Assembly (NCBI GenBank): GCA_944391815.1
Contig: CALXUV010000028.1
Span: 44,240-108,239, forward strand
Source: an uncultured Clostridia bacterium
GTDB lineage: Bacteria; Bacillota; Clostridia; Oscillospirales; CAG-272
DNA: 64,000 bases
Direction of reading: 5' to 3'
The translations under genes and the position numbers were made by a program. Positions 6,398-64,000 of this stretch are shown in pieces. Numbering within the stretch: position 1 is the first letter of the stretch; every line of letters begins with the position of its first letter. The notes under the pieces are model-generated. The model had not been told where the DNA came from. It saw nothing but the letters and a program-made list of their open reading frames with translations, and searched no databases.

Positions 6398-6467
6398 AAT
6401 TGTGACCGAATTAATGACAGGTTTTTAAGTATAGTTAACGCAGTAATGTATTTTTTTGTTTGGGTAC

Positions 6468-6496
6468 TTGATTTATTTCGGATAGTGTGGTATAAT
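6468..6496 (+). promoter_or_regulatory. sigma-70-like promoter (TTGATT-17-TATAAT)
   Basis: ttgatttatttcggatagtgtggtataat. Confidence 0.4.
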
Positions 6497-6554
6497 ATGA
6501 CGGGTTTTGGCGGAATTTGTGATTAAAGGATGAAAAGAAAACCGGAGAGAATAC

Positions 6555-7211
6555 ATGAAATTTAAACACTCTTTTTTTGTGGGTGAAGAAAACAGAATCA
6601 AAATATTCGGAGTCGATTTTGTTAATCTGTATTTTGTCGGAATAATTTTTGCTCAGTTCGGCTGGACTGCGGAAAATGTCGCCAGAATAATAACACTCGG
6701 AATATTCGACTGCAGATTTCATCTGCTCCCTTTTATATCGCCGTATATGCTTATAGCGTTTGCTTTTCATATATTTTTCAGAGATTCTGACAATATAACT
6801 TTTTTCGGTAAGAAATTATTCAGAAAGCGTACATTTTTTACCGTAGCTGCGGAAAATGCGCTGTGCCTTCTCATGATATGCACGGCTGTGTTTTTAGGCG
6901 AATTGATTGTGGGAAATATGTGGGAAATCTGCTTTGGCGTTCAGCTTTGGAACTATTCCGAACAACCTTTTCACGTTACTCAGTACGCAGGACTTATACC
7001 GACGCTTGGATATGGAATCGGCGCCTTTCTGATTTTCAAACTCATATATAATCCGCTTATGAAATCAGTAAGCAAAGAAATAAGCTATAAAGTAGTTAAA
7101 ACAACTGATCTGACGCTCGGAGCATTTATACTTATCGATACCTTAATAATGATAATTCAGATAATGGTATTCGGAAATCCTCCGATCTATTGGGTGGTAA
7201 GAATATGGTAA
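6555..7211 (+). CDS. polytopic membrane protein, unknown function
   Basis: 5-6 hydrophobic helices in 218 aa; overlaps next gene by 22 nt. Confidence 0.55.
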   Translation: MKFKHSFFVGEENRIKIFGVDFVNLYFVGIIFAQFGWTAENVARIITLGIFDCRFHLLPFISPYMLIAFAFHIFFRDSDNITFFGKKLFRKRTFFTVAAENALCLLMICTAVFLGELIVGNMWEICFGVQLWNYSEQPFHVTQYAGLIPTLGYGIGAFLIFKLIYNPLMKSVSKEISYKVVKTTDLTLGAFILIDTLIMIIQIMVFGNPPIYWVVRIW

Positions 7212-7810
7212 ATTACTTGGAAAGAGGTAAAATCTACCTCGTTATTTCACAAACCGGAACCATACTTTCGAGAATAGTCAAAACGGTTACCGGAGATAAA
7301 TACAATCACGTTTCAATTGCACTTGACAACCGTCTTGAAAATATGTATTCATTCGGCAGAACAAATCCTTATAATCCGGTGCACGGCGGATTTGTCAGAG
7401 AGTCAAGGGACAGCGGAACTTTCAGAAGATTCATCAACACCGAAGCAATGATAGTGGAAGTGTCACTTGATATGGATCAGTACAGAAAGATCACCGAGGA
7501 ACTGAGACGTATGTACCTTATGAAGGAAAGATACCATTACAATTACATGGGGCTTGTAATGGCTATGTTCGGAAAGCAACGGTGTAAGGAAAACTGTTAT
7601 TACTGTTCGGAGTTTGTTTACCGTATCCTCAAAAAGCATGGAATAGAACTTGCCGGCGGTGAAAGAAAGGTAGTAAAACCGATAAATCTTGCCGAAGTTG
7701 AGGGCGGTAAAAAAATTTATGAGGGCAGACTTCAGGACTTCAACAGATACAGTTACGGCATTGTGATAAAAAACGGACTTTTTCTTACAAATCCGAAGCG
7801 TTCAAACTGA
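7190..7810 (+). CDS. YiiX/DUF830-like permuted papain-fold (NlpC/P60 superfamily) protein; true start probably 7205
   Basis: KYNHVSIAL ... YYCSEFVYRIL arrangement resembles the permuted Cys/His papain-like hydrolases. Confidence 0.4.
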   Translation: MGGKNMVNYLERGKIYLVISQTGTILSRIVKTVTGDKYNHVSIALDNRLENMYSFGRTNPYNPVHGGFVRESRDSGTFRRFINTEAMIVEVSLDMDQYRKITEELRRMYLMKERYHYNYMGLVMAMFGKQRCKENCYYCSEFVYRILKKHGIELAGGERKVVKPINLAEVEGGKKIYEGRLQDFNRYSYGIVIKNGLFLTNPKRSN

Positions 7811-7943
7811 ACATCCGGAGATTTTCATTAAAACCCGCACTTTTTGGATATTCAGAGAAAAAGTTCAGGACTCTCAGCGGTATATTGATTTAAGTAAGAT
7901 GCGCAGTATCTGAGTTCTTTCATATAAGAAAAGGAGAGGAAAA

Positions 7944-8604
7944 ATGAAGCACATAAGCGAGATACAGATAAGAGATCCGTTTATAGTGCATAAGTATAAA
8001 GGCAGATATTATATGTTTGCCACCTTCTACGGAAACGGAAAAAGGGGAAGTCAGATACTTGTTTCAGATATGATCGACGGAAAATACGTACCTTATTCGG
8101 AAGGAACTATAATACCGGAAAACTGGTTTTCGCCTGACGCGACATTTTATGTGGAGGACGGTATACCGTACACTGTATTCTGTCACGAATGGGTGCAGGC
8201 GGTTGACGGCGAGGTGGTCCTTCAAAGGCTTTCCGATGATCTTAGAAAACCGGTAGGAGAGCCCACTGTGCTTTTCAAAGCTACCGATGCCGGGTGGCCT
8301 CAGCAGATTTCCGGCGATAAGCATACCGGATATGTCACTGACGGTCCGTTTCTTTTCAAGAAGAAGGACGAGCTTGTTATGCTTTGGTCGAGCTTTTAAA
8401 AAGGTAAATATGCTATAACAGCGGCAAGGTCAAAAGGCGGAATAAAAGGTCCCTGGAAGCAGGAAGAGGTTCCGATGTTCCGGGACGACTGCGGACACGG
8501 AATGCTGTTCCGCACATATGACGGAAAACTTATGCTTTCGGTACATTCACCAAACAAAAGTCCACTTGAAAGAGCCTGTTTCAAGGATGTTACCGATAAA
8601 ATCT
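7944..8604 (+). pseudogene. GH43-like glycoside hydrolase interrupted by in-frame TAA at 8397-8399
   Basis: MKHISEIQIRDPFIV... reads ...LVMLWSSF*KGKYAITAARSKGGIKGPWKQEEVPMFRDDCGHGMLFRTYDGKLMLSVHSPNK... in the same frame across the stop to 8604. Confidence 0.55.
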
Positions 8605-8712
8605 GAGCTTGAAGCGCATTAAATTTTCATCCCGGTAAAGCGGTGGCAAACCCCGTTTTATCCGGGATTTTTTTGTTTTATTTTTCAAAAACGCAAAAAA
8701 TTCAATTTTTAC

Positions 8713-8741
8713 TTGACAAAAACGCATTGCTGTGGTATAAT
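8713..8741 (+). promoter_or_regulatory. sigma-70 promoter for pheST leader (TTGACA-17-TATAAT)
   Basis: ttgacaaaaacgcattgctgtggtataat. Confidence 0.55.
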
Positions 8742-8744
8742 AAC

Positions 8745-9030
8745 TTAAAAATCAAATTTCTGACTGCGATTATGTGTAAGTACCGGATTCAGTAAACTTG
8801 TCAGAGACGGAAAATCATCGGCTGAAAGTTTTCCGAAGGTCTGTTCCCGGGAATTTCAGCATATGAGTCTCCGCCGGAAAGCGTTACGCATAAGACGGAT
8901 GTAACCGCTGCATTAAAGCGGAAAAAGAGCAAAGATCTCTGTCTTTGAAATAGGGTGGTACCGCGGATGTTTTCCGTCCCTTTTCGGCAGGGGTTATTTT
9001 TTTATTCTTCGCAGATAAGCGAGAAAGGAA
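8745..9030 (+). promoter_or_regulatory. T-box leader upstream of pheS-pheT
   Basis: Canonical T-box AGGGTGGTACCGCGG at 8952-8966 followed by hairpin and TTATTTTTTTATT. Confidence 0.75.
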
Positions 9031-9035
9031 ACGTT

Positions 9036-10034
9036 ATGAAAAACCATATTGAGAAGGTAAGGGAAGAGCTGCAAAGCAATCTTGTCAAAGTCACGGCAAC
9101 GGACGGTCTGAATGTGATCGAGACATCGTTCAAAAAGATTTTAAAAGAGCTTTTCGGCGAAATGAAGAATCTTCCGTCTGAAGAAAAACGTGATGCGGGT
9201 AAGCTGATAAACGATCTCAAAAACGAATTTGAAGAAAAATTCAAAAGCATGAGAGAAAAAATAGCGCAGGGAGAAAAGACGGAAACCTGCATTGATATGA
9301 GCATTGCTTCCCCGGAATTTGTAAGAGGAAAGATTCATCCTCTCATAAGAGTCGGAAAAATGATGGAAGACGTTTATAAGGAAATGGGATTTTCAATTGC
9401 CTACGGTCCGGAAATCGAAAACGACAAGCATAACTATGAAATGCTGAATATGCCGTACTATCACCCGGCAAGAGATATGCAGGATACATTTTATCTTGAA
9501 TATCCGAATGTGCTTTTAAGATCACATACCTCATGCGTGCAGATAAGATATATGCTTGAACACAAACCTCCGTTTATGATAATTTCGCCCGGAGTTGTAT
9601 ACCGTGTAGACGAAATAGATCCGCAGCATACACCCTGCTTTTATCAGGTCGAAGGACTGGTTGTGGGCGAGGGAATAAACCTTGCAAACCTCAAATGGGC
9701 TATGACGGAAAGTGCGCAGAGAATCTTCGGAAGTGATCTTCAGGTCAGATTTTCTCCGTGTTACTATCCTTATACCGAACCGAGTGCCGCTGTTGACATG
9801 AGCTGTATAATGTGCGGAGGAAAAGGCTGCCGTACATGTAAGGGCACGGGCTGGATGAGGGTTGCGGGTGCCGGAATGGTGCATCCGAACGTATTCGAAG
9901 GAGTCGGATATTCCCGTGACACGCAGGGATTTGCCTTCGGATGGGGACTGAACAGACTGCCGATGCTGTACTATAAAATAGCAGAAATGCGCAAACTGTT
10001 CGAAAACGAGATAACCCTTTGGGAACAGATATAA
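9036..10034 (+). CDS. pheS: phenylalanyl-tRNA synthetase alpha subunit
   Basis: MKNHIEKVREELQ...; class II core FRPSYFPFTEPS-like YYPYTEPSAAVDM; start after T-box (ORF track start 8955 is inside leader). Confidence 0.93.
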   Translation: MKNHIEKVREELQSNLVKVTATDGLNVIETSFKKILKELFGEMKNLPSEEKRDAGKLINDLKNEFEEKFKSMREKIAQGEKTETCIDMSIASPEFVRGKIHPLIRVGKMMEDVYKEMGFSIAYGPEIENDKHNYEMLNMPYYHPARDMQDTFYLEYPNVLLRSHTSCVQIRYMLEHKPPFMIISPGVVYRVDEIDPQHTPCFYQVEGLVVGEGINLANLKWAMTESAQRIFGSDLQVRFSPCYYPYTEPSAAVDMSCIMCGGKGCRTCKGTGWMRVAGAGMVHPNVFEGVGYSRDTQGFAFGWGLNRLPMLYYKIAEMRKLFENEITLWEQI

Positions 10035-10051
10035 GTTAAGGAGGTGTAAAG

Positions 10052-12139
10052 ATGTTCAGATTTCCTTACAGTACCCTGAAAAGTATCAGCGATACCGAAA
10101 TCAGCTATGAATCGCTTCTTGAATGGCTCAGATATCAGGGATTTGAGATAGCATCAATCGAAAAAACCGATGACGGCGATACTCTCATAGAAATTGAGGT
10201 AAAAGCAAACCGTCCGGATATGCTTTCGGTGGAGGGTGTACTCCGTGAAGTTTATATATCACAGAAAATTCCGGCACCCAAAACTCTTGACGCCGATCTG
10301 AAACTCAGTTTCTCACCGGACAATAATCTTTCACACAAAATCCGCATTCTTTCAAAAGATGTGCACAGATACTGCGGAATAGAGATAACCGGAATCGACA
10401 ATACGGTAAAGACTCCTGACTATATTACCGATGTGCTGACTAAACTCGGCATACCGAGTATAAGTCCGGTGGTTGATATCAGTAACTACGTCCTTGTGCT
10501 TACAGGTCAGCCAAGCCACATATTTGATACCGATAAGCTGAGCGGCGATATCAGAGTAGAAAATATTGCAGAAGAGCAGACAATTTCAACTCTTAACGGA
10601 ACCGATGTGAAATTTCCGGCGGGAGCGCTGATAATTTCTGATGATGAAAAGCCGGTATGTGCCGCGGGAATGATAGGCTCACCAAACGCCGAGATCACTC
10701 CGGAGACAAAGAACGTTATAATCGAGTGCGCAAATTTCGACCACATAATCATACGCACCACTTCAAAGAAGACTCACGTGTCCACAATGGCGTCGTACAG
10801 ATATGAGAGGGGAGTCGATACCGAACTTTGCTACCGCGGTGCGAGAATTCTGGCAAAAATGATAGCCGATATTTGCGGAGGTAAGGTAAATACCAAAGCA
10901 TACTGCTACCGTGATACGGAATATAAGCCCCAGGTACTGACTCTGACAACCGAAAGAACAAATGCCCTGCTCGGAACAGAACTTTATCCCGATGAAATAG
11001 CTGACATGCTCAAACGCTGCTATTTCGATGTCAAGGTTATAGACGGAACGGCAATGGAAGTCAAAGTACCGTCATTCCGTCTGGATATAGAAATAGACGC
11101 CGATCTTATCGAGGAAGTGGGAAGAATTTACGGTTACCATAACATAAAGCCGCAACCCATAAAGCTTTATGCGCCTTATATCGAAAACAAAATCAACAAA
11201 AACGCCAACCTTCTGAGAAATGCAATGGTGGGATACGGTTTTGTTGAAGTGTTGACTTACGGCTTCATCCCGGCTGACGCAATGAAAACGCTTGCTGTTC
11301 CGGAGACATCGCCTTACTACGGCGATGTGCAGATACTCAATCCCCTTGCTTCGTGGTATCAGCTTATGCGTCCGAATATGGCATATAACCTTATACAAAC
11401 GGCAATCAACAATATGTCTGCGACTCGCAGTAATATAAAGATATTTGAGCTCGGAAAGACGTTCGGTAAGAAAGATGCCTCTGCAACGGGATATGAAAAT
11501 TATTTTGAAAAGAACATGTTTGCGTTGCTTCTTACCGGAACAAAAATACCGAAGGGCTTCGGAGTTTCAAAGGAAATCAAGTACAGCATTTACGATGCAG
11601 TCGCACTGGTAAAGAATCTCCTTTCGGAATATACAACCGATCTTCGTATCAGCAATAATGACGGTTTCGGAATATTTGAGCCCGGAGCGGGAGCAGAAAT
11701 CACCGCAGGTGGAAAGCATATAGGAATTGTGGGTAAAATTTCGCCCGAGGTATTATCCGGATTTGAAAACGGAAAACTCGCAAAGGACGATGTTTTCTAT
11801 GCGGAATTCTGCTACGAAAATCTCGGAGAGGTAAAGAAATCAATTTCATACCAGTCAAGTTTCCCGTCAGTGGTTCGTGAGTACAACTTTGTTGTAAAGA
11901 ACGGAATACATTTCCAGGATTACAAGGATTTGATAACTTCTGCATCACCGTTTGTGATTTCGGTAAACCCCGTAGATGTTTATTTCGGTACAGGCGTCGA
12001 AAAAGGCTTTTCATCCGTACTGATAAGCGTGGAATACAACGCAGTTACAAGAACGCTTGCGGCAGAGGAAATAGAGGCAGCCGAACATATATTCAAAATG
12101 AAACTCAGTGAAAAGTTCGGCATTGTTCTGAAATCATGA
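10052..12139 (+). CDS. pheT: phenylalanyl-tRNA synthetase beta subunit
   Basis: Immediately downstream of pheS with GGAGG RBS; B3/4 and B5 region similarity, 695 aa. Confidence 0.9.
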   Translation: MFRFPYSTLKSISDTEISYESLLEWLRYQGFEIASIEKTDDGDTLIEIEVKANRPDMLSVEGVLREVYISQKIPAPKTLDADLKLSFSPDNNLSHKIRILSKDVHRYCGIEITGIDNTVKTPDYITDVLTKLGIPSISPVVDISNYVLVLTGQPSHIFDTDKLSGDIRVENIAEEQTISTLNGTDVKFPAGALIISDDEKPVCAAGMIGSPNAEITPETKNVIIECANFDHIIIRTTSKKTHVSTMASYRYERGVDTELCYRGARILAKMIADICGGKVNTKAYCYRDTEYKPQVLTLTTERTNALLGTELYPDEIADMLKRCYFDVKVIDGTAMEVKVPSFRLDIEIDADLIEEVGRIYGYHNIKPQPIKLYAPYIENKINKNANLLRNAMVGYGFVEVLTYGFIPADAMKTLAVPETSPYYGDVQILNPLASWYQLMRPNMAYNLIQTAINNMSATRSNIKIFELGKTFGKKDASATGYENYFEKNMFALLLTGTKIPKGFGVSKEIKYSIYDAVALVKNLLSEYTTDLRISNNDGFGIFEPGAGAEITAGGKHIGIVGKISPEVLSGFENGKLAKDDVFYAEFCYENLGEVKKSISYQSSFPSVVREYNFVVKNGIHFQDYKDLITSASPFVISVNPVDVYFGTGVEKGFSSVLISVEYNAVTRTLAAEEIEAAEHIFKMKLSEKFGIVLKS

Positions 12140-12251
12140 CATTCAGATTTCAGTCAATATTAAAAATGTGTAAATCTTTTTGATTTCAGTGGAAATTTTT
12201 TCTTGTATGTGTTATAATAATTCTGTTAAAAAACATGGAGGAATTTTAAAT

Positions 12252-14882
12252 ATGAAAAAGTACGTATATCTTTTTTCGGAAGGTAACGCCTCAATGCGTG
12301 AACTTCTCGGAGGAAAAGGCGCTAACCTTGCAGAAATGACCAACCTCGGACTGCCGGTACCGCAGGGCTTCACCATAACTACCGAAGCCTGCACGCAGTA
12401 TTATGAAGACGGCAGGCAGATAAACAGCGAGATTCAGGCTCAGATAATGGAGTATATTGACAAGATGGAACAGATCACCGGAAAGAAATTCGGAGATCTT
12501 GAAAATCCGCTCCTCGTTTCTGTTCGTTCAGGAGCCCGTGCTTCAATGCCCGGAATGATGGATACCATACTTAACCTCGGTCTCAATGAGCAGGTTGCAC
12601 AGGTTATGGCTGAAAAGTCCGGAAACCCCCGCTGGGCTTGGGACTGTTACAGAAGATTTATCCAGATGTACTCCGATGTTGTTATGGAAGTCGGTAAAAA
12701 GTATTTTGAACAGCTCATAGACAAGATGAAAGAGGAAAAAGGCGTAACCCAGGACGTAGAGCTCACTGCTGATGACCTCAAAGAGCTTGCCAATCAGTTC
12801 AAAGCTGAATACAAGGCAAAGATAGGTGCTGATTTTCCCACAGATCCTAAGGAACAGCTTTTCGGAGCAATCAAAGCGGTATTCCGCAGCTGGGATAACC
12901 CCCGTGCAAACATTTACCGTCGTGATAACGATATACCGTACTCCTGGGGAACCGCTGTCAACGTACAGATGATGGCATTCGGAAATATGGGCGAAACATC
13001 CGGAACCGGAGTTGCTTTCACCCGTGATCCCGCAACCGGCGAAAAGAAGCTCATGGGAGAATTCCTTATGAACGCTCAGGGTGAAGACGTTGTTGCCGGA
13101 GTACGTACTCCTCAGAAAATAGATGAGATGGCAAAAGTTATGCCTGAGGTGTTTGAGCAGTTCAAAAAGATCTGCACAACCCTTGAAAACCATTACCACG
13201 ATATGCAGGATATGGAGTTCACGATAGAAGACAAGAAACTCTATATGCTCCAGACACGTAACGGTAAAAGAACAGCGAAAGCGGCTCTTAAAATAGCATG
13301 CGACCTCGTTGACGAAGGAATGATTACCGAAGAGCAGGCAGTGCTGATGATCGATCCCAGAAACCTTGATACGCTCCTTCATCCGCAGTTTGATGCAAAA
13401 GCGCTCAAAGCCGCAACTCCGCTTGCAAAAGCACTTGCAGCATCTCCCGGAGCTGCTGCCGGACAGGTTGTATTTACGGCTGAAGACGCAAAAGCATGGA
13501 AGGAAGCCGGAAAGAAAGTTGTTCTTGTAAGACTTGAAACCTCCCCCGAAGATATTGAAGGAATGAAAGCCGCACAGGGAATTCTTACTGTTCGCGGCGG
13601 CATGACTTCTCACGCAGCGGTTGTTGCGCGCGGAATGGGAACCTGCTGTGTTTCCGGATGCTCAGCCATAAACATGGATGAGGAAAACAAAGTGTTTACA
13701 CTTGCCGGAAAGACATTCCATGAAGGTGACTGCATTTCCATTGACGGTTCAACAGGTAACGTTTACGAAGGAATTATTCCGACCGTTGACGCTCAGATAG
13801 CCGGTGAATTTGAACGCATAATGTCTTTGGCAGACAAATTCCGTAAGCTCCAGGTCAGAACCAACTCTGATACCCCGAAAGATGCGCAGAAAGCACGTCA
13901 GCTCGGAGCTGAGGGAATAGGTCTCTGCCGTACAGAACACATGTTCTTTGAGGGCGACAGAATAGATGCGTTCAGAGAAATGATCTGCGCCGACACAGTT
14001 GAGGAAAGAGAAACGGCACTCAATAAGATACTTCCGATGCAGCAGGGAGACTTTGAAAAACTCTATGAAGCTCTCGAAGGCAATCCGGTAACCATAAGAT
14101 TCCTTGATCCGCCGCTTCACGAGTTCCTTCCCACGGAAGAAGCCGATATTGAAAAACTTGCAACCAGCCAGGGTAAGACTGTAGAGCAGATCAAGGCGAT
14201 AATAGCGTCTCTGCATGAAGCAAACCCGATGATGGGACATCGCGGATGCCGTCTGACGGTAACTTATCCCGAAATAGCGAAGATGCAGACCAGAGCGGTA
14301 ATCCGTGCGGCTATAAATGTACAGAAAGCTCATGCCGGATGGAAGATAGTGCCTGAAATAATGATACCGCTGGTAGGTGAAGTTAAAGAGCTGAAGTTCG
14401 TAAAAGATGTTGTTGTTGCTACTGCTGATGAGGAGATTAAGCTTGCGGGCTCAGATCTCAGTTATGAAGTCGGAACAATGATAGAAATTCCCCGTGCGGC
14501 TATAACAGCTGATAAGATTGCTGAAGAAGCCGAATTCTTCTGCTTCGGAACAAACGACCTTACCCAGATGACATACGGATTCAGCCGTGATGATGCCGGA
14601 AAATTCCTTGATTCTTATTACGATGCCAAAATATTTGAAAACGATCCGTTTGCGAAGATTGACCAGGAAGGCGTTGGTAAGCTGATGGAAATTGCGTGCA
14701 CGCTCGGAAGGAAAGTACGTCCGGAAATGCACATCGGAATCTGTGGAGAACACGGAGGAGATCCTACATCAGTTGAGTTCTGCCATAAACTCGGACTCAC
14801 TTATGTATCTTGCTCGCCGTTCAGAGTACCGATAGCACGTCTTGCCGCAGCACAGGCTAACATCAAGAATCCCAGAAAGTAA
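12252..14882 (+). CDS. ppdK: pyruvate, phosphate dikinase
   Basis: MKKYVYLFSEGNASMRELLGGKGANLAEM; phospho-His region GGMTSHAAVVARGMG; PEP-utilising C-terminus; RBS GGAGGAA. Confidence 0.95.
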   Translation: MKKYVYLFSEGNASMRELLGGKGANLAEMTNLGLPVPQGFTITTEACTQYYEDGRQINSEIQAQIMEYIDKMEQITGKKFGDLENPLLVSVRSGARASMPGMMDTILNLGLNEQVAQVMAEKSGNPRWAWDCYRRFIQMYSDVVMEVGKKYFEQLIDKMKEEKGVTQDVELTADDLKELANQFKAEYKAKIGADFPTDPKEQLFGAIKAVFRSWDNPRANIYRRDNDIPYSWGTAVNVQMMAFGNMGETSGTGVAFTRDPATGEKKLMGEFLMNAQGEDVVAGVRTPQKIDEMAKVMPEVFEQFKKICTTLENHYHDMQDMEFTIEDKKLYMLQTRNGKRTAKAALKIACDLVDEGMITEEQAVLMIDPRNLDTLLHPQFDAKALKAATPLAKALAASPGAAAGQVVFTAEDAKAWKEAGKKVVLVRLETSPEDIEGMKAAQGILTVRGGMTSHAAVVARGMGTCCVSGCSAINMDEENKVFTLAGKTFHEGDCISIDGSTGNVYEGIIPTVDAQIAGEFERIMSLADKFRKLQVRTNSDTPKDAQKARQLGAEGIGLCRTEHMFFEGDRIDAFREMICADTVEERETALNKILPMQQGDFEKLYEALEGNPVTIRFLDPPLHEFLPTEEADIEKLATSQGKTVEQIKAIIASLHEANPMMGHRGCRLTVTYPEIAKMQTRAVIRAAINVQKAHAGWKIVPEIMIPLVGEVKELKFVKDVVVATADEEIKLAGSDLSYEVGTMIEIPRAAITADKIAEEAEFFCFGTNDLTQMTYGFSRDDAGKFLDSYYDAKIFENDPFAKIDQEGVGKLMEIACTLGRKVRPEMHIGICGEHGGDPTSVEFCHKLGLTYVSCSPFRVPIARLAAAQANIKNPRK

Positions 14883-55217: not shown

Positions 55218-55309
55218 TCACAATCGCGGTTTTATTCACGTAAATGTTTAAGAAACCGACAGCTACCAAACTTTTAACATTAAGCTTTTCAGGTGAACGG
55301 AGATATGAT

Positions 55310-58300
55310 ATGAAAAAATTTCTGATACTGACTTTTACTATTATTCTTATCGTTACCCTTTCATTTATGGTTGTATCCTGCAATAACAATGATGACGAAA
55401 ATATTTACAATGAAAATGAAGGAAACGATTCATCGGATAAACCCGGTGAAAACAACGGGACCGATCCTAATGAAGCCCCCAATGACTGGGAAAACGATCA
55501 AGCCGGAAATGATTCCGGTGAAGGAAATCAGAACGAAGGCGATGCTTCCGGAAATGAACAAAATCCCGGAAGCGAGCAAAACCCCGGCGATGAAGAAGGC
55601 GATGGCAATCACGGAAGCTCTGAGGTTGATGAAGGAACACCGGATGGTGATCAGGAAAAAATTGATGCAGACGACTTGAAAAATGTAAGCTTTACCGGAA
55701 AAACAGTTGAATACACCGGAATGCCGCAGAGTATTGTGGTAAACACTACGCTGTTGCCTGAAGGAGTCAGTGTAACTTACCAAGGTAACGGAAGAACAAA
55801 TGCCGGAGTTTATACTGTCAGAGCCAAATTCTACTTTAAAGGTGAATATATCTCCGGGGCAGACAAAACCGCTGTTTTAAAAATCAATAAGGCGACTCTC
55901 AAACTGCCTCCTGAAGCTTTTTCAGATGCGATTTTCGATTTTGACGGACAGAATCATAGTATCACAATTGATGAAACCTTAATTAAACAAGGCTTTACAG
56001 TCAGCTATGAGGGAAATAATGTATATAGCATAGGAAAACACATTGTTAAAGCTGTTTTTAAAGTCAAAGATCCAGCAAATTACGAAGTTCCCGCACCTAT
56101 TACCGCAATTTTGACAATTAACCCCGGAAATTACGCTACTGAGGACCTGATTTATCAACTTAACGGCAATTCCTATGAAATTGTGGGTTATACCGGAAGT
56201 GACAAATCGGTCATAATCCCCTCTACATACGACGGTAAACCTGTAACATCTATAGCTTCGGAAGCATTCAAAGATAATAGATATATAACGTATGTTTATC
56301 TGCCGGAAACTGTAACCAATATCGGCAACAATGCCTTTAAAAATTGCTATTCTCTTGAAATATTTAATTTTGCAAAAGTACAGGTGATTGGACAGAACGC
56401 ATTTGAAAATACAAATATCAAAAAAATATCTTTGCCGGATACACTTATTTCCATCGGAAAAAGTGCTTTCAGAAACGTAAATGTCGTAAGTTTCACGCTA
56501 CCGTTTATCGGCGGCAGCGCAGACTCGTCCAACAGATATCTTGGTTTCATTTTCGGTGCGCCAAGTCATATCGCAAACTCCACTTATGTACCGTCAACAC
56601 TTGGCAGCGTCACGTTGTCTGATGCATGCGGTGAAATAGCCCCTAATGCATTTTACGGTTGCAGCAGTATCAGTGAGATCATTATTGGTGAAAACATTTC
56701 AAAAATAGGAAACGGCGCTTTTTACAAATGCACAGGGCTTAGATACATTTACCTTCCTTCATCTGTAACAAATATCCCGGCAAATGTAGCTTATATTAAT
56801 TCACCGTTCAACGGTTGTTCTGAAAAACTTTTTGTGGTTCTCGAAGGTGATATACCGGATGGATATAACAGTTATTGGAATTATATTTCCGAGTCCGAAA
56901 AGGCTTTGATTATAAAAAACGAAAGTTTTAACGACTATCTTACCAATAGAGATTCTTACGAGGATGAAGATATGAGTGAGACGGGACTTGAGGCAATTTA
57001 TCTTAACGGTGTTGCTCTGAGCGGTTTCAGCACTGCAAAACTCAACTACACCTCAGTTATGGATATTAATACGGGATATGGAACGTTAACCTATAAAACC
57101 CTCTCTCGTGTAGCTGCGGTAGAAATAACAGAAACAGAGAAAACTTTATCGTCAGTAACTGTTCGTATCAAAGTAACCGGAGGAGATCGCATCAGCGTAA
57201 CGGAATATTACATAACATTCAATGTTTCCGGCACACTCAACTCTTCAGGAAACGAAATCGTCAATAAAAACGGAACAGATGCTACCGTAACATATGTCAT
57301 AGATGACGGTGATCAGAAAACCGGTTCATTTGCCGCCGAAATGCTCGGAAAATACAGTTACCTCAATCTGAGTTTTGCTATTCCGACCAAAAATTTTGTT
57401 ACATTCAATACTGAGGAGACAGATAACGGCAAATTGCAGTACGTAATGGATGGCGACAGATATACATACACTGTCAAAAACGATGCAGTTACTTTCTGGA
57501 AAAATATACTCGACAATGCTGACGGCAGGGCTGAGATCGTCAATCATACCGATTCGCACGCATACTGGGGTCAGAATGACGACGGGGGAACGTTTACATA
57601 CGTAGACAACAACAACAACATAAAAACCGCAACGATGCCTATCGGAAGCAGTACAAAGGAAATGTACGGCGCCAATCAGGTAATTGAAGAGCTTTTTCCC
57701 AGTTACCTTTACCCCTCGATGAGCACCACAACATTCATTAATGCCGGAATAGGGGTGAAAATGGGAACTGTTACCATTGACGGAATAGTTTATCCATCAT
57801 ATTATGCTTTCTTCAAAAATGTTATAAATAAGGCTTATGCAGACGGTGAGATACTCGGAATGCGGTCAACTTTTATAGTACAGGATACTACTGGTTCAGC
57901 AAGCAAAGTCATACTTCCCGAAAATTTCAAAACAGCTGATCAGCGTCTGAATATTCCGGCGTTTATGGTTAAAGACGGACCGGGAGACAATTCCGGTAAC
58001 GGAATTGAAAACTGGACAGCTTATATTGATCACGCTATTGATCAGAATGGTTGGGCTTGCTTCTGTATTCACAACATTAGGGATGATCAGACAACGGGGC
58101 ATTACATCACAACTGCAAATGCAGACGCTCTTTTTGGATACACGGAAGATAAAAATGTATGGGTTGCCTCGATAAATGACGCTACGAAATATTATAGAGA
58201 ATGGTCAACTGCAAAACTCTCGACTGTATACCAAGGAGAAACAATCAAAGTCACACTCACAGACGGCGAAGACAACGAAATATGCGATATGGCTTTGACT

Positions 58301-58450
58301 GTGAAGATCTATACACCGGTGACGTGGGATAAGGCTATGTATAACGACACTGTGATTGATGTACATGAGGAATCAAACGGAAGACGTTATGTCCTTGTGG
58401 ATATCATTCCGGACAGCGGTGTGACTGAAATTACAGGTATTTGTGGTTAA
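55310..58450 (+). CDS. secreted protein: acidic low-complexity region, BspA-type leucine-rich repeats, C-terminal CE4 (NodB) polysaccharide deacetylase-like domain
   Basis: Signal MKKFLILTFTIILIVTLSFMVVSC; LRR units IGNNAFKNCYSLEIFNF...; CE4 motifs YVIDDGD and NHTDSHAYW. Confidence 0.75.
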   Translation: MKKFLILTFTIILIVTLSFMVVSCNNNDDENIYNENEGNDSSDKPGENNGTDPNEAPNDWENDQAGNDSGEGNQNEGDASGNEQNPGSEQNPGDEEGDGNHGSSEVDEGTPDGDQEKIDADDLKNVSFTGKTVEYTGMPQSIVVNTTLLPEGVSVTYQGNGRTNAGVYTVRAKFYFKGEYISGADKTAVLKINKATLKLPPEAFSDAIFDFDGQNHSITIDETLIKQGFTVSYEGNNVYSIGKHIVKAVFKVKDPANYEVPAPITAILTINPGNYATEDLIYQLNGNSYEIVGYTGSDKSVIIPSTYDGKPVTSIASEAFKDNRYITYVYLPETVTNIGNNAFKNCYSLEIFNFAKVQVIGQNAFENTNIKKISLPDTLISIGKSAFRNVNVVSFTLPFIGGSADSSNRYLGFIFGAPSHIANSTYVPSTLGSVTLSDACGEIAPNAFYGCSSISEIIIGENISKIGNGAFYKCTGLRYIYLPSSVTNIPANVAYINSPFNGCSEKLFVVLEGDIPDGYNSYWNYISESEKALIIKNESFNDYLTNRDSYEDEDMSETGLEAIYLNGVALSGFSTAKLNYTSVMDINTGYGTLTYKTLSRVAAVEITETEKTLSSVTVRIKVTGGDRISVTEYYITFNVSGTLNSSGNEIVNKNGTDATVTYVIDDGDQKTGSFAAEMLGKYSYLNLSFAIPTKNFVTFNTEETDNGKLQYVMDGDRYTYTVKNDAVTFWKNILDNADGRAEIVNHTDSHAYWGQNDDGGTFTYVDNNNNIKTATMPIGSSTKEMYGANQVIEELFPSYLYPSMSTTTFINAGIGVKMGTVTIDGIVYPSYYAFFKNVINKAYADGEILGMRSTFIVQDTTGSASKVILPENFKTADQRLNIPAFMVKDGPGDNSGNGIENWTAYIDHAIDQNGWACFCIHNIRDDQTTGHYITTANADALFGYTEDKNVWVASINDATKYYREWSTAKLSTVYQGETIKVTLTDGEDNEICDMALTVKIYTPVTWDKAMYNDTVIDVHEESNGRRYVLVDIIPDSGVTEITGICG

Positions 58451-59349: not shown

Positions 59350-60609
59350 ATGATGTCCTCATATAGCGAGCTTATTAAGAACTTTGAAAAAATCAGAGCA
59401 TATATGCGCGATTTCTACGTTTATGGTTTCAAGAGTCGTGACGACTTTAAGTCCAAAAGTGCGCGTTCTTATGATGACGAGCGCCGACGTATTGAAAGCT
59501 GGCTTGGCGATAATATGAGTTTTGTTCGCACCCCGGAAGGTAAAAACGTTTTTATTTCCATTGACAGCCGAACTATACGGCACAATCCGCTTTACAAAGC
59601 TTGGAAAGCAAAGAGCTTTACCGACGGTGATATCACATTGCATTTCATTATCTTTGACATTCTTCATGATCCGGCTGTTAAACGCACTGTTTCTGAGTTG
59701 CTCGCAGAGATCGATGAGAAATATCTGTCAGACTTTGAAAGCCCTATGATGTTCGACGAATCTACCGTTCGCAAAAAGCTTAGGGAATACTGCGAAGCCG
59801 GAATTATCGTGGCAGAAAAAGAAGGACGAAAGGCATATTATCGCAGAGCTGATTCCACCGATATTTCCGACCTTAACGATGTTCTTCATTATTTTTCGGA
59901 GGTTGCTCCTTGCGGTGTGATCGGATCGTTTATACTCGATAAAGAGGAATCAGACACAGATTCGTTTACCTTTAAGCATCATTACATAACCTGTGCAATC
60001 GACAGCGGTGTTCTGGCAGCCTTATTTACAGCTATGCGGGAAAAGCGGGCGGTGACAATATCCAATATGAGCCGCCTTAAAGACTTGCCAAGACTAAATC
60101 GAATTGTCCCGCTTCGCGTGTTCATAAGCGTACAAAGCGGCAGACAGCATTTATTAGCGTATCTTCCTGAATACAATTCATTCCATTCCTACCGTGTGGA
60201 TTACTTATCAAACGTAAAGTTAGAAGAACCGACTCCTCGCTTTGACGAACTTCGCGCGGAGCTTGACAGAATGCAAGGCAAGATGTGGGGAGTGAGCGTC
60301 AAACGTAATAAATGGGGCGTAGACCACCTTGAACACGTGGAATTTACCGTCAAAGTGAAAGACAATGAGGAATATATCGTGGGGCGCCTTGAACGCGAAA
60401 AAAGAGTCGGAACGGTCGAAAAACTTGACGATAATACATATCGTTTTTCTGCAGATGTTTACGATTCAAGCGAGATGATACCTTGGATAAGAACATTTAT
60501 CTGCCGTATAGTAAAAATGAACTTTTCCAATCGCAGTGTAGGGAACAGATTCAAAAAGGATTTGGAAGTTATGTATCGGATGTACAATGTAGAGGAGGTG
60601 AGCGAATGA
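59350..60609 (+). CDS. WYL-domain protein A (N-terminal extra domain, wHTH, WYL, C-terminal extension)
   Basis: wHTH-like STVRKKLREYCEAGIIVAEKEGRKAYY; WYL core GRQHLLAYLPEYNSFHSYRVDYL. Confidence 0.6.
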   Translation: MMSSYSELIKNFEKIRAYMRDFYVYGFKSRDDFKSKSARSYDDERRRIESWLGDNMSFVRTPEGKNVFISIDSRTIRHNPLYKAWKAKSFTDGDITLHFIIFDILHDPAVKRTVSELLAEIDEKYLSDFESPMMFDESTVRKKLREYCEAGIIVAEKEGRKAYYRRADSTDISDLNDVLHYFSEVAPCGVIGSFILDKEESDTDSFTFKHHYITCAIDSGVLAALFTAMREKRAVTISNMSRLKDLPRLNRIVPLRVFISVQSGRQHLLAYLPEYNSFHSYRVDYLSNVKLEEPTPRFDELRAELDRMQGKMWGVSVKRNKWGVDHLEHVEFTVKVKDNEEYIVGRLEREKRVGTVEKLDDNTYRFSADVYDSSEMIPWIRTFICRIVKMNFSNRSVGNRFKKDLEVMYRMYNVEEVSE

Positions 60610-61517
60610 TATTCAGAGAGCTTTACTCCGCATATTACAATACGGTTGCCGCTATTATTTCGAGCATCATTGACGGTGAGCACTCTGAAAAGGAACTGCA
60701 AAAAATAGTAGCTGACCGTGCATTCGGTGAGAGTGTGTTGGTGATCCTACCTTCACTCAAAACTGAGAAATGGCAGCTTGTGCATCCCGATATGACCACC
60801 TCACTTGAACACAAGCCAACTATGCCGCTGACCACTCTTCAAAAGCAGTGGCTGAAAGCGATTTCGCTTGATCCGCGCGTAAAATTATTTGGTGTGAAAT
60901 TTCCCGATCTTGAGGAAGCAGAACCTCTTTTCACCTCTGCGGATTATCACGTTTGCGATAAATACGGTGACGGAGATCCGTTTGAGGATGAAGAATACAT
61001 AAGACATTTTCGAATCATTTTAGAGGCTATACGGAAAGGTTCTCAGATCAAGTTCGAAATGGTCAACCGTAAGGGCAACATGATGTTCGTGAGATGTCGT
61101 CCCGTGCGACTTGAGTACTCGGAAAAAGACGATAAGTTCAGAGTGATCACAGCGGGATGTCGTGCTGTTTCAACTGTTAACCTTGCCAATATAAGATTCT
61201 GTGCGCATTATACCGGAGAAAGACAGTCGGTTGGAGAGGAAAAAGCGGTAATATACGACACTGTCACCGTGAAGATTCGCGACGAGCGAAACGCAATGGA
61301 GCGATTCATGCTCCATTTTGCCCATTTTGAAAAGCAAGCCGAAAAACTTGACAGAAAAAATTATTTCGTGAAAATTAAATATGCGCACGATGATGAATCA
61401 GAAATGGTGATAAGGATCCTTTCATTCGGACCGATGGTAGAGGTTACCGGATCAGAGTCCTTCAAAAAATTAATCATCGAAAAGCTGAAAGAACAGTTAA
61501 ACTACGGATTAAAATAG
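60606..61517 (+). CDS. WYL-like domain protein B, translationally coupled to A (ATGA overlap)
   Basis: DDKFRVITAGCRAVSTVNLANIRF core; no obvious HTH. Confidence 0.45.
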   Translation: MIFRELYSAYYNTVAAIISSIIDGEHSEKELQKIVADRAFGESVLVILPSLKTEKWQLVHPDMTTSLEHKPTMPLTTLQKQWLKAISLDPRVKLFGVKFPDLEEAEPLFTSADYHVCDKYGDGDPFEDEEYIRHFRIILEAIRKGSQIKFEMVNRKGNMMFVRCRPVRLEYSEKDDKFRVITAGCRAVSTVNLANIRFCAHYTGERQSVGEEKAVIYDTVTVKIRDERNAMERFMLHFAHFEKQAEKLDRKNYFVKIKYAHDDESEMVIRILSFGPMVEVTGSESFKKLIIEKLKEQLNYGLK

Positions 61518-61520
61518 CAA

Positions 61521-61548
61521 AAAGCTCTCATTTGAGGGCTTTTTTATT
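61521..61548 (+). terminator. rho-independent terminator after WYL pair
   Basis: agctctc attt gagggct TTTTTTATT. Confidence 0.6.
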
Positions 61549-61694
61549 GTTTTCGCAGATTTTTTTCCGTGAAAAAAAGTGAATTGAATGGTAAAATATG
61601 CTTGCAAGGTTACTTCAAGCGAGTGTTTGAGTCAATCCTTCACAGCGGTGCACGAGGATATTCCAAAGTGTATGCCGGAAGAACTTTTGCACTT

Positions 61695-61742
61695 TGAGCC
61701 TTTCAAGCTCGTTATTCGCGGGTTCAAATCCCGCCGTATGCA
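61695..61742 (+). ncRNA. tRNA-Glu(UUC)-like 3' half: anticodon arm, variable loop, T arm, acceptor 3' strand; no 5' half
   Basis: tgagc CTTTCAA gctcg / ttattc / gcggg TTCAAAT cccgc / cgtatgc a. Confidence 0.45.
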
Positions 61743-62004
61743 ATTACAGCATATCGCCGGTGGTATGGATTTGTCCTTCGGGACGCAAAAAACGGTACCC
61801 GGAAGCATGCTTTCGGGTGCGAGAACGTTTTTATTCTGACATCAGTTATCATTCGGCAAAGAGAGAAATGCGTCTGCAGATTTCTCGGCGCAATGCAAAA
61901 GCAAGCCCTGCCTGTTGATGGATACCGTGCTATCCAAATTGGTGCCAAAAGGAATCTTTCCGCACCATGCCGGAAACACTTAAATCTTCAGCCGCTGCTT
62001 TTGC

Positions 62005-62670
62005 ATGAGTGATAACGGGATCAAACCAATTATGATTGGAGTGATAATAATGCTTTTCTTCTTCAAATCAAAAAGAAATCAACTGTTATCAAAGCTTATA
62101 AAAGCATTTCCAAAAGAATATAGATCAGATGTTGAAGCAGTTTGCAATACCTTGACACTAAAAAGCAAGGCATACAGTGGCGCATTGTATAGTGATGAAA
62201 CAACCGAATGGAGCTTACTCTCGGGTGAGAAAATAGAGATTCCATATCGTGTTTATTTAAGTGACAAATTGATTTTTCAAAACAAACTTACGGCGCAGCA
62301 ACAAGTGATCTACCATTGCATTTTTTCAAGAAGCTATGATGGATACGTCCGTCAAAAGCATATAGAAGCTTTGCTTGATTCTGATACGCCGGAATGGGCA
62401 ATGCCGTATATCGTAAAGATTTGCGACGAATATGTAAAAGAAATTTTGGATACTGTCTATCAAAAATTGAAAGCAAGAAATTGTGAAAGATATAAAGCGC
62501 TTTGCCAGCTGAATTTTGATTATTTCAAATTAGGTCATTGCCGCATGATCAGCTATTGGAATGAATATTACCGATACGATTGTTACAAATACAAAGAGTA
62601 TCTCGGAAAAAAACTTTACGGCGAGTGCTTTGGTTATAATAAGACCGGACAAAAATCTATTCAATTCTGA
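62005..62670 (+). CDS. Cys-rich protein with N-terminal membrane anchor, unknown function
   Basis: MIGVIIMLFFF anchor; 9 Cys in C-half. Confidence 0.45.
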   Translation: MSDNGIKPIMIGVIIMLFFFKSKRNQLLSKLIKAFPKEYRSDVEAVCNTLTLKSKAYSGALYSDETTEWSLLSGEKIEIPYRVYLSDKLIFQNKLTAQQQVIYHCIFSRSYDGYVRQKHIEALLDSDTPEWAMPYIVKICDEYVKEILDTVYQKLKARNCERYKALCQLNFDYFKLGHCRMISYWNEYYRYDCYKYKEYLGKKLYGECFGYNKTGQKSIQF

Positions 62671-62687
62671 AGAAAGGTTTACATACT

Positions 62688-63791
62688 ATGAAAAAAATGA
62701 TTATCAATGAAAATCAGAAGGGTTTTCTCTTCAAAAACGGAAAGTATATCAAATTGCTCGACGCGGGCAAATATCACCTGTTTGGAGGCAGGGATATTGA
62801 GATTTCCAATCTGGAACAGCCTATCGTGTGCAGCAAGTGCTCTCTTGAAACCTTGCTTGCAGACAAAGCAGTTGTCGATCAAGTTGCAGTCGTTGAAGTA
62901 GGCGACGAGGAGCTTGCTCTCCACTATGTAAACGGTAAGTTTTCAGATGTTCTTCCTCAAGGAAAATACGCTTTCTGGTCTACTTTGTACCAGCACGAAT
63001 TTAAAATCGTGGACATTTCAACTCCCACAGTTGACGAATCCATTCCCGAGTACATTTTCTCCAAGATTTCTCAGCTTTACTACATCAAAATCGAGGTTGC
63101 AGAATATCAGAAAGCAAGACTCTATTTTGGTCAAAAGCTTGAGCGGATTTTGGATGCGGGCACCTACTATTTCTGGAAAACATCTACGAAGGTAGACGTA
63201 AGCTTTGTTGACACCCGTTTGACACAAATGGATATCACGGGTCAGGAGATCCTTACAGCGGATAAGGTTTCTCTTCGTATAAACTTTGTCTGCAACTACC
63301 GTGTGACCGACTATGTCAAGATTCTGACTGAGATCGACGATTTCGCAGAGCAAATGCACGTGGCGGCACAGCTTGCCCTGCGCGAATATGTCGGTAAATA
63401 CAAGTTAGATGAAATCCTTGAAAACAAGGCACAAATGTCCGAGTTTATATTCGCCAAGCTGAAGTCAAAAGAAAAGGAGCTGTTCGTAGAAATCACTGAT
63501 GCCGGCGTCAAGGATATCATCCTGCCCGGCGAAATCCGCGAGATAATGAATACCGTTCTTGTCGCAGAAAAGCGTGCACAGGCAAACGTTATTACCCGTC
63601 GTGAAGAGGTTGCATCCACACGCTCCTTGCTGAATACAGCAAAGCTGATGGATGAAAACCAAACCCTTTACACGCTCAAAGAGCTGGAATACGTTGAGCG
63701 CATTTGCGAGAACGTAGGCAACATCTCCTTGAACGGTAACGGCAACATTCTGGGTCAGCTAACAACAATCTTAAACGGTAACAACGCCTAA
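62688..63791 (+). CDS. SPFH/band-7 (stomatin/HflC-like) protein without TM segment, N-terminal triple (L)DAGxYxFW repeat
   Basis: Band-7 core DITGQEILTADKVSLRINFVCNYRV ... ILPGEIREIMNTVLVAEKRAQANVI. Confidence 0.8.
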   Translation: MKKMIINENQKGFLFKNGKYIKLLDAGKYHLFGGRDIEISNLEQPIVCSKCSLETLLADKAVVDQVAVVEVGDEELALHYVNGKFSDVLPQGKYAFWSTLYQHEFKIVDISTPTVDESIPEYIFSKISQLYYIKIEVAEYQKARLYFGQKLERILDAGTYYFWKTSTKVDVSFVDTRLTQMDITGQEILTADKVSLRINFVCNYRVTDYVKILTEIDDFAEQMHVAAQLALREYVGKYKLDEILENKAQMSEFIFAKLKSKEKELFVEITDAGVKDIILPGEIREIMNTVLVAEKRAQANVITRREEVASTRSLLNTAKLMDENQTLYTLKELEYVERICENVGNISLNGNGNILGQLTTILNGNNA

Positions 63792-63799
63792 GTCCTTCA

Positions 63800-63849
63800 T
63801 GCGGTCGGGCGCGTTGTAACCATATAACTACAATTTATGCCCGACCGCA
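63800..63849. promoter_or_regulatory. 11-bp perfect inverted repeat with nested 5-bp IR, 20 nt upstream of rtcB RBS
   Basis: tgcggtcgggc ...28 nt... gcccgaccgca; no T-run. Confidence 0.4.
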
Positions 63850-63869
63850 CACCATGAAAGGAGAAAGAC

Positions 63870-64000
63870 ATGATAGAGATTATAGGAACTTTTAACACCG
63901 CAAAGTGCTTCGCCTCGACCCTTGAGGACGGTGCGCGTGAGCAGATCAAGGCGGTATGCGATACCGAGGCGTTCGCGTCCTCGAAGATAAGAATTATGCC
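63870..64000 (+). CDS. rtcB: RtcB-family RNA 3'-phosphate ligase, N-terminal 43 codons (runs off window)
   Basis: MIEIIGTFNTAKCFASTLEDGAREQIKAVCDTEAFASSKIRIMP matches the Firmicutes RtcB start ending in the IRIMPD(x)H metal motif. Confidence 0.7.
   Translation, partial: MIEIIGTFNTAKCFASTLEDGAREQIKAVCDTEAFASSKIRIM

Follow-up and report, generated by a model that had tools for sequence, protein, structure and literature searches.

A conserved module of paired WYL regulators, a tRNA-like structured RNA, an SPFH protein and RtcB in gut Oscillospirales: a candidate WYL-controlled RNA-repair system

This study concerns a locus at the 3' end of a 64,000-nucleotide (nt) stretch of DNA (hereafter, the window) from an uncultured Clostridia bacterium of the order Oscillospirales (GenBank assembly GCA_944391815.1, contig CALXUV010000028.1, positions 44,240 to 108,239). 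It comprises two adjacent genes for WYL-domain regulators (A and B), a non-coding region specifying a structured RNA with tRNA-like elements, a gene for an SPFH/stomatin-like (Band-7) protein (D) and the beginning of rtcB, the gene of an RNA ligase. The order WYL-A, WYL-B, RNA, SPFH, RtcB is found again in about 80 Oscillospirales genomes at species level, and a 21-nt motif, essentially unchanged between otherwise unalignable flanks, overlaps the promoter located between the regulator genes and the RNA. We consider it fairly probable that A and B bind this motif and activate the promoter when a single-stranded nucleic-acid damage product is present, and that the RNA, the SPFH protein and RtcB jointly reseal cleaved RNAs. 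The initial annotation, made from the sequence of the window alone, had placed these features correctly and had recognized both overlapping WYL genes, for which profile searches now give matches (Pfam WYL for A and the PADLOC WYL profile, at 2e-8, for B). The main components, in window coordinates, are:

59350-60609, + strand: WYL regulator A, 419 aa, with an N-terminal extension, a putative winged-helix segment (residues ~100-175), a WYL domain (221-290) and a weak WCX domain (330-383)
60606-61517, + strand: WYL regulator B, 303 aa, of WYL-WCX type with no helix-turn-helix (HTH) detected, overlapping A by ATGA
61519-61544, + strand: intrinsic terminator of the WYL operon, an 11-bp stem followed by a T-run
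61552-61572, + strand: near-invariant 21-nt motif TTCGCAGaTTTTTTTCCGTGA, candidate binding site of the WYL pair, overlapping the -35 element
61569-61597, + strand: promoter (from a consensus scan) with a weak -35 (GTGAAA), a 17-nt spacer and an extended -10 (TGgTAAAAT, 61589-61597)
61604-61830, + strand: 5' domain of the structured RNA (from an alignment of 59 sequences)
61846-62015, + strand: 3' domain of the structured RNA, 170 nt, a nested multi-helix structure with the invariant GGAUACCG and an outer helix formed by 61846-61854 and 62007-62015
62688-63791, + strand: SPFH/stomatin-like protein D, lacking a transmembrane (TM) segment, with a repeat-bearing N-terminal extension of ~150 aa
63870-64000, + strand: rtcB (RNA 3'-phosphate/5'-OH ligase), cut by the end of the window

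When species-representative genomes were searched for the SPFH protein, 80 loci were obtained, almost all of them in Oscillospirales/Clostridia metagenome-assembled genomes from the gut, together with Ruthenibacterium lactatiformans (L076). The SPFH protein is 69-93% identical across these loci. Among the loci with enough sequence for gene order to be counted, 51 of 54 genomes have the WYL pair upstream of the SPFH gene and in its orientation; of 74 genomes, all carry the 5' part of the RNA and 72 its 3' part; and rtcB follows the SPFH gene within 700 nt in 54 of 62. Conservation of this neighbourhood had been named in the initial annotation as a check on its proposal, and these counts bear it out. 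The genes located after rtcB vary: they are unrelated in the closest relative and include, in more distant relatives, a nucleotidyltransferase of the PF10127 'RNA repair pathway' family (RlaP), while RtcA was never found among the genes downstream of rtcB in the relatives (unrelated genes, RlaP or DUF2828 stand there instead). At L020, L024, L027, L030, L050, L063 and L065 the SPFH gene is followed by genes for a HIRAN-domain protein, a calcineurin-like phosphoesterase or proteins of no recognized kind, without rtcB.

A further comparative signal comes from the intergenic region that follows gene B. In an alignment of this region, TTCGCAGCTTTTTTTCCGTGA is essentially unchanged in 75 loci whose flanks cannot be aligned and whose proteins are down to ~50% identical, and the extended -10 is kept across 75 loci. 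The last bases of the motif form the weak -35 of the promoter, which is of the sigma-70 type with an extended -10. The motif occurs once in the window (61552-61572, with one mismatch), and a 19-nt core pattern with one N allowed matches 72 of the 80 genome loci. A metagenome scan with the exact 20-mer added at least 120 further contigs; the set used here consists of 121 independent contigs, i.e. 120 from metagenomes (among the matches listed) and one from a separate scan of IMG/VR. On these contigs, 73 of 86 sites have gene B no more than 700 nt upstream of the motif, and the first genes downstream of it encode SPFH, RtcB or DUF2828 proteins in 65 of 74. Of 188 sites, 165 have 20 nt between the end of the motif and the -10. 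All of the genes found downstream of the motif specify RNA-repair components (RtcB, SPFH, DUF2828, RlaP and tRNA-like RNAs), and no DNA-repair gene carries it among the ~190 sites. This distribution is the pattern expected of a regulator binding site with a small regulon, and the WYL pair is the candidate regulator.

Two kinds of module share the regulator pair and the motif promoter. Type 1, to which the window belongs, consists of the structured RNA, an optional gene C (described below), the SPFH gene, rtcB and optionally RlaP. In type 2, the same WYL pair and motif promoter are followed by 150-630 nt of non-coding sequence and then by genes for RtcB and a DUF2828/DUF7788 protein, in either order, and both SPFH and the 3' RNA domain are missing. 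Type 2 loci are found among L083-L202 (e.g. L155, 5732-9041, and L083, 4686-7773). The DUF2828 protein has no sequence match in the PDB. In L155, the sole type 2 locus in which this was checked, the non-coding stretch holds a tRNA-like element (5978-6040) that matches the Rfam tRNA model with 48 bits and has the anticodon loop CUCAUAA.

Two motif promoters are present in L067, L072, L077 and L157, the second copy preceding RtcB or DUF2828; in L021 the second copy, also before RtcB or DUF2828, is exact and the one at the main promoter carries one mismatch. Within the SPFH-module loci L072 (12335-14882), L067 (5118-7621) and L021 (7335-9402), a second motif promoter with a second, more canonical tRNA-like RNA (at 12672-12744 in L072, with an odd 4-nt anticodon according to ARAGORN) stands ahead of DUF2828, and RlaP likewise comes after it in L067 and L072. 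L077 is rearranged (2595-3881 and 4903-7270): the WYL pair, a motif promoter and rtcB without the RNA are followed by a second motif promoter, the RNA, C and SPFH. The only match to the motif in the viral collection, L082 (IMGVR_UViG_3300045988_016381, 7684-12985), contains the WYL pair, the motif, the 5' part of the RNA, RtcB and DUF2828, and may be either phage or host-flank sequence. Control of RNA-repair genes by the WYL pair is supported mainly by the fact that the motif follows the WYL pair and precedes RNA-repair genes even in rearranged loci. The proposal of the initial annotation that a WYL pair takes the role of RtcR thus gains strong support from comparative genomics (synteny and promoter motif), with the control itself still a matter of prediction.

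The two regulators differ in their recognizable domains. Protein A matches Pfam WYL with 27.5 bits (cut-off 21.8), WYL is matched by all 28 of the A orthologues tested, and downstream of a ~100-aa N-terminal extension its residues ~100-175 gave concordant sub-threshold matches to winged-helix proteins (PaaX, ArsR/SmtB, the C-terminal part of Csa3 and ArsR proteins of the PDB). Protein B itself has no Pfam WYL match. Pfam WCX was matched in 22 of 29 B orthologues (best E = 5e-9) and in 6 of 28 A orthologues; in the A and B proteins of the window it falls below the cut-off. No HTH was found in B by sequence profile searches, and its AlphaFold2 model (pLDDT 54) is too poor to judge this point; the low confidence is due to a shallow alignment (≥81% identity), and the model was used for family-level Foldseek matching only. 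In that comparison, the top 31 PDB matches were all WYL transcription factors, among them DriD, PafBC, CapW, BrxR and the Cas13d-associated WYL protein (PDB 6oaw). Neither the A and B sequences nor profiles of their families found a useful match when searched by sequence against the PDB. The start codon of B lies inside the stop codon of A (ATGA) and is preceded by the Shine-Dalgarno sequence GAGGAGG, an arrangement from which translational coupling of the two genes is read. The intrinsic terminator that had been predicted after the pair was confirmed.

The non-coding stretch that begins at the motif promoter has a GC content of 48%, compared with 33-40% in its flanks. The distance from the -10 to the SPFH ATG (~445-500 nt) is constant in nearly all of the loci without gene C, conservation extends to the SPFH ribosome-binding site, and a terminator scan detected no terminator between the RNA and SPFH. 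For these reasons the RNA, ~420 nt long, is taken to be co-transcribed with SPFH-rtcB or to be their leader. The initial annotation had described a GC-rich segment of ~300 bp with a T arm; the base composition and the T arm hold, while the element is longer than supposed and includes the start of gene C. Within the 5' domain the following elements were recognized:

61604-61608 / 61686-61690, + strand: closing helix P1 (GCAAG / YUUGC), supported by covariation
61648-61653 / 61668-61673, + strand: hairpin GGUGCAC / GUGUAUG, with an apical stem GGA/UCC that switches to GGC/GCC in relatives
61695-61711, + strand: anticodon-like hairpin with a 7-nt loop (CUUUCAA in the window)
61718-61734, + strand: T arm GCGGGTTCAAATCCCGC, switching between GCGGG/CCCGC, GUGGG/CCCAC and GCAGG/CCUGC among relatives
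61736-61754, + strand: acceptor-like closed stem-loop with compensatory changes in 5 of 6 pairs
61757-61768, + strand: D-like stem-loop with a conserved GG
61773-61784, + strand: tetraloop hairpin

In the 59 aligned sequences, 90.8% of the cells of the 5' domain are paired, compared with 27-52% when the partners are slid against each other, and 23 pairs show compensatory changes on both sides. Folding of the single sequence (minimum free energy -138.9 kcal/mol, z = -3.1) reproduced the helices supported by covariation. The T arm is a perfect tRNA T arm, and an 18-nt fragment of the tmRNA T arm is the sole Rfam signal of the intergenic region; ARAGORN found no tRNA anywhere in the window, the Rfam tRNA model was likewise silent at the T arm, and relaxed Rfam searches with the RNA region of the window and one divergent relative gave no family match for either domain. 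At the same site ARAGORN calls a 'tRNA' in six relatives, with varying anticodons, through an alternative, acceptor-type pairing of the G/U-rich strand 61668-61674 with 61735-61741. This pairing is formed in 91% of the cells of the 59 sequences with one-sided changes only, it requires three G·U pairs in the window, and several relatives break it yet keep the local hairpin. A plain cloverleaf was accordingly rejected as the main fold, given also the missing D arm and the negative ARAGORN result. From the alignment, a YrlA-like (permuted) fold appears better supported than a cloverleaf-like one, with the cloverleaf-like pairing as a possible alternative state.

In relatives, the loop of the anticodon-like hairpin reads CUGUCAA in most cases (GUC, Asp-like), with the variants GUG, GUU, GUA and UUC; loop and T arm together resemble tRNA-Asp, which may hint at the origin of the RNA or at the tRNAs that it mimics. 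Many relatives of a long type (e.g. L032, 9620-9700, and L072, 9638-9704) carry an insertion of 60-100 nt before the main T arm, which holds a second T-arm-like hairpin GGGGTTCAACTCCCC and where the Rfam signal is weakly mascRNA-like. Finally, the 5' end of the RNA (AAGGU, 61606-61610) could pair with ACCUU located 5' of the SPFH Shine-Dalgarno sequence in the loci without gene C. Such a closing helix between the 5' and 3' ends is weakly supported (5.17 vs 4.74 ± 0.13 in shuffled controls), with a few variants that look compensatory.

The 3' domain is very strongly supported by covariation: compensatory changes were found in 39 of its 43 predicted pairs, 92.6% of cells are paired (35-42% with the partners slid), and its covariation score is 0.52 as opposed to 0.10-0.14, the observed values being reached in none of 500 shuffles. 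Its frequent G·U pairs fit the + strand only. Among the motif-bearing loci compared, this domain is confined to the SPFH-type modules, and in the window the start codon of gene C (62005) sits inside its outer helix.

Downstream of the RNA, protein D is assigned to the SPFH family (PF01145 at 1.7e-29, with stomatin matches in the PDB). No TM segment was found (maximum KD19 = 1.10), as had been predicted, and the three N-terminal repeats noted initially resolve into two strict copies of L-D-A-G-x-Y-x-F-W and one variant. An exact-sequence look-up of protein D returned no match. The rtcB gene had also been recognized correctly at the end of the window: the 43 residues encoded before the cut share 53-98% identity with N-termini of open reading frames (ORFs) of relatives (tblastn), and the gene is identified as rtcB because the full-length ORFs that were checked (L072 and L076) are PF01139 RtcB proteins. 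Two further features of the window module are of restricted occurrence:

62005-62670, + strand: protein C, 221 aa, a small optional protein with an N-terminal hydrophobic segment and 8 Cys
63800-63849, + strand: intercistronic hairpin, with 11-bp arms (63800-63810 / 63839-63849) and a 28-nt loop, specific to a subgroup

Protein C had been described as a membrane-anchored Cys-rich protein. The hydrophobic N-terminus agrees with this; the protein is only modestly Cys-rich (8 of 221 residues), is absent from most relatives and gave no family match in profile searches. Since its homologues were found in only 13 of the 80 genome loci, it is regarded as an optional insertion. The 11-bp inverted repeat between SPFH and rtcB is present as annotated, and it had been put forward as a candidate site for the regulator. 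It was rejected in this role, being kept, with compensatory changes, in a close subgroup only; in many relatives the spacer between SPFH and rtcB is just 18-35 nt long and the hairpin is absent. No T-run follows it, and we interpret the repeat as an RNA hairpin between the cistrons with a role in processing or stability.

Taken together, the data can be accommodated in the following scheme. A and B would be produced from one coupled transcript and would probably act together like PafB and PafC, with A bringing the winged-helix DNA-binding domain. The complex is predicted to bind the 21-nt motif overlapping the weak -35 and, upon binding of a single-stranded nucleic-acid damage product by the WYL domains, to activate rather than repress the extended -10 promoter. 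Activation is likened to that by DriD and PafBC, which act from the -35 region and whose complexes with RNA polymerase are present in the PDB as those of transcription activators. RNA fragments, as for RtcR, would be the favoured ligand, with single-stranded DNA (ssDNA) as the main alternative. The transcript would begin near 61604 and consist of the ~420-nt RNA followed by SPFH and RtcB, with C before SPFH in some strains. The tRNA-mimicking 5' domain and the SPFH-specific 3' domain may then work with a soluble SPFH oligomer as an RNA-protein scaffold or decoy, which would protect cleaved tRNA-like substrates or offer them to RtcB for resealing.

Several observations weigh against this scheme. 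The module is not strictly constant, as rtcB does not directly follow SPFH in 8 of 62 genomes and an adjacent WYL pair is missing in 3 of 54. The alignment between A and B is weak and covers the WYL-WCX part (E = 0.014), and because of this, of the undetected HTH of B and of the poor model of B, the PafBC-like heteromer is an analogy only. No copy of the motif is present upstream of gene A within the window. In 117 of 191 sites the terminator of the WYL operon uses the 5' half of the motif as its 3' arm, so part of the conservation of the motif could be terminator-related. The WYL factors of known ligand among the PDB matches (DriD and CapW) bind ssDNA, not RNA, according to the titles of their entries. 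Lastly, the RNA abuts the SPFH ribosome-binding site and could therefore act in cis rather than as a cofactor.

There are rival explanations. It is quite conceivable, if not what we expect, that the WYL pair senses ssDNA in the manner of PafBC, DriD and CapW and that the module is an arm of a DNA-damage or phage-induction response. The Salmonella rtc operon is induced during the SOS response, according to PMC9879122, and the closest structural matches of B, as judged from its model, are all WYL factors, of which those with a solved ligand are bound to ssDNA. The genes found downstream of the motif point the other way, as they belong to RNA repair and not to DNA repair. WYL1 of the Cas13d systems, the 6oaw protein among the matches of B, is moreover an RNA-linked member of the family and binds RNA. 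A further explanation denies the WYL pair its site altogether: the motif would be the leftover of a terminator, fused to a specialised promoter element (a T-tract, an UP-like element or the target of another factor), and its adjacency to the WYL genes mere linkage. The complementary upstream arm in 117 of 191 sites speaks for this, but the motif is equally invariant in the 74 sites without a terminator arm, the window included, its 3' half CCGTGA lies outside any hairpin, and second copies occur away from the WYL genes, always before RNA-repair genes; we regard this explanation as very unlikely.

As regards the RNA, it may be mainly a cis-acting leader, either riboswitch-like or a tRNA-mimic sensor, and not a cofactor in trans. 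Its refolding, or its cleavage and religation, would then set the translation or stability of SPFH-rtcB, and the WYL pair would add a transcriptional layer. We think this somewhat unlikely, though several features speak for it: the RNA lies directly upstream of SPFH with a fixed length and no terminator before the ribosome-binding site, and its 3' domain occurs only in SPFH-type modules. The strand that follows the T arm has two possible partners, namely the downstream strand, with compensatory changes in 5 of 6 pairs, or the upstream GUGUAUG, with which it makes a 7-bp stem of tRNA acceptor type; GUGUAUG in turn has another possible partner, with which 99.7% of cells are paired. The conserved ACCUU beside the Shine-Dalgarno sequence can, in addition, pair with the RNA 5' end. 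However, the acceptor-type pairing, for which only one-sided changes were seen, is broken or absent in L018, L068, L024 and L056, the pairing of the 5' end beside the Shine-Dalgarno sequence barely exceeds its shuffled controls, neither a terminator/antiterminator pair nor a convincing Shine-Dalgarno-sequestering helix was found in the RNA, and in strains with gene C the RNA lies ~680 nt from SPFH. A bolder form of the same idea, to which we assign a low probability, is that the RNA represents a new class of damage-sensing leader, whose tRNA-mimic module toggles between a cloverleaf-like state (61668-61674 paired with 61735-61741) and a YrlA-like state (two local hairpins). Cleavage by an anticodon nuclease, processing by RNase P/Z or resealing by RtcB could make SPFH-RtcB expression depend on the state of the tRNA pool, and the SPFH-specific 3' domain would serve as a protein- or ligand-binding platform. 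The notion that the T-arm region is a functionless, decaying tRNA gene or an integration-site remnant is consistent with the silence of ARAGORN and of the Rfam tRNA model in the window; covariation and synteny refute it, since compensatory changes preserve the T arm and its flanking stems across about 60 species and the element occupies a fixed position in 74 of 74 genomes, and we consider it practically untenable. Of these possibilities, a structured RNA working with SPFH and RtcB on cleaved RNAs remains the one that we prefer.

Apart from the RtcR paradigm of proteobacteria, there has been essentially no study of bacterial RtcB systems. The system described here, which is widespread in human and ruminant gut Oscillospirales, offers a test case, comprising a two-gene WYL regulator, a near-invariant 21-bp candidate operator (present in hundreds of contigs), a defined promoter and a ~420-nt RNA supported by covariation, and it has at least one cultured carrier, R. 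lactatiformans. Questions that become testable are what WYL domains sense at RNA-repair genes, what use tRNA mimics are to RtcB, and what role a soluble SPFH protein plays. The upstream neighbour of the module in the window (55244-58450) encodes a 1068-aa BspA-type leucine-rich-repeat surface protein (PF13306) and lies outside the conserved module; the 99%-identical contig L081, which ends before SPFH, has this gene too. Elsewhere in the window, a T-box leader (RF00230, 8757-8984, + strand, 93.5 bits) and a fluoride riboswitch (RF01734, 39389-39463, - strand, 49.2 bits) were identified.

The combination of genes had been described in the initial annotation as not known to have been characterised. 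Its elements had in fact been predicted in 2016. [quoted passage not shown] In this 2018 preprint, b7a-tRNA is given as being without experimental validation. Later papers of the Aravind group credit the 2016 work with the proposal that WYL factors sense cyclic-ended RNA and regulate RNA-repair pathways. Because both SPFH with a tRNA-like RNA and RtcB, and WYL factors in RNA repair, were thus already predicted, the present system is best viewed as a member of a predicted kind. A literature search, within the library covered, found no experimental study of a WYL-RtcB or an SPFH-RtcB system, and likewise none of an rtcB-associated RNA motif or riboswitch.

The module agrees with the Band-7/b7a-tRNA/RtcB association in its TM-less SPFH protein next to RtcB, the tRNA-like RNA beside SPFH and the presence of RlaP in some relatives. 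It differs from that association, as described by the citing papers, in its WYL-pair regulator; in Pseudomonas, according to a 2026 paper, an SPFH gene is contained in the rtcR-rtcB-rtcA locus. Unlike b7a-tRNA, again by the description of the citing papers, the RNA is ~420 nt long, has a strongly covarying 3' domain and forms no callable cloverleaf in the window. With the RtcR-RtcBA systems of E. coli and Salmonella it shares an RtcB operon under an adjacent, dedicated ligand-sensing regulator, for which damaged RNA is the expected signal; it lacks, however, a CARF/AAA+/sigma-54 activator and RtcA, and has a sigma-70-type promoter and WYL sensor domains instead.

Co-location of a tRNA-mimicking RNA with RtcB is also a property of the Rsr(Ro60)-YrlA/Y RNA-RtcB systems. 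YrlA is a circularly permuted tRNA mimic, as stated in the YrlA structure paper (bioRxiv 10.1101/312249), and the order of T, closed acceptor-like and D stem-loops in our RNA is that of YrlA. In contrast to YrlA, a separate anticodon-like hairpin stands before the T arm, the 3' domain is a large addition and the RNA is fused to an mRNA leader. No Ro60/TROVE match was found among the neighbours examined, and no Rfam Y RNA family scored above chance level; in the sister modules that share the motif, DUF2828 replaces SPFH. As to the regulators, A and B share the WYL domain, and at family level the WCX domain, with the HTH-WYL-WCX proteins PafBC, DriD, CapW and BrxR, and as an adjacent gene pair they resemble pafB-pafC; the candidate site overlapping a poor -35 fits the RNA polymerase activator complexes of PafBC and DriD in the PDB. 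They differ from all four in their very low sequence similarity, the undetected HTH of B and the ~100-aa N-terminal extension of A, and in having as targets RNA-repair genes rather than DNA-repair or phage-defence genes. Compared with the descriptions in the citing papers, the operator-like motif, the joint control of SPFH- and DUF2828-type modules, and the extent and structure of the RNA, especially of its 3' domain, may be new.

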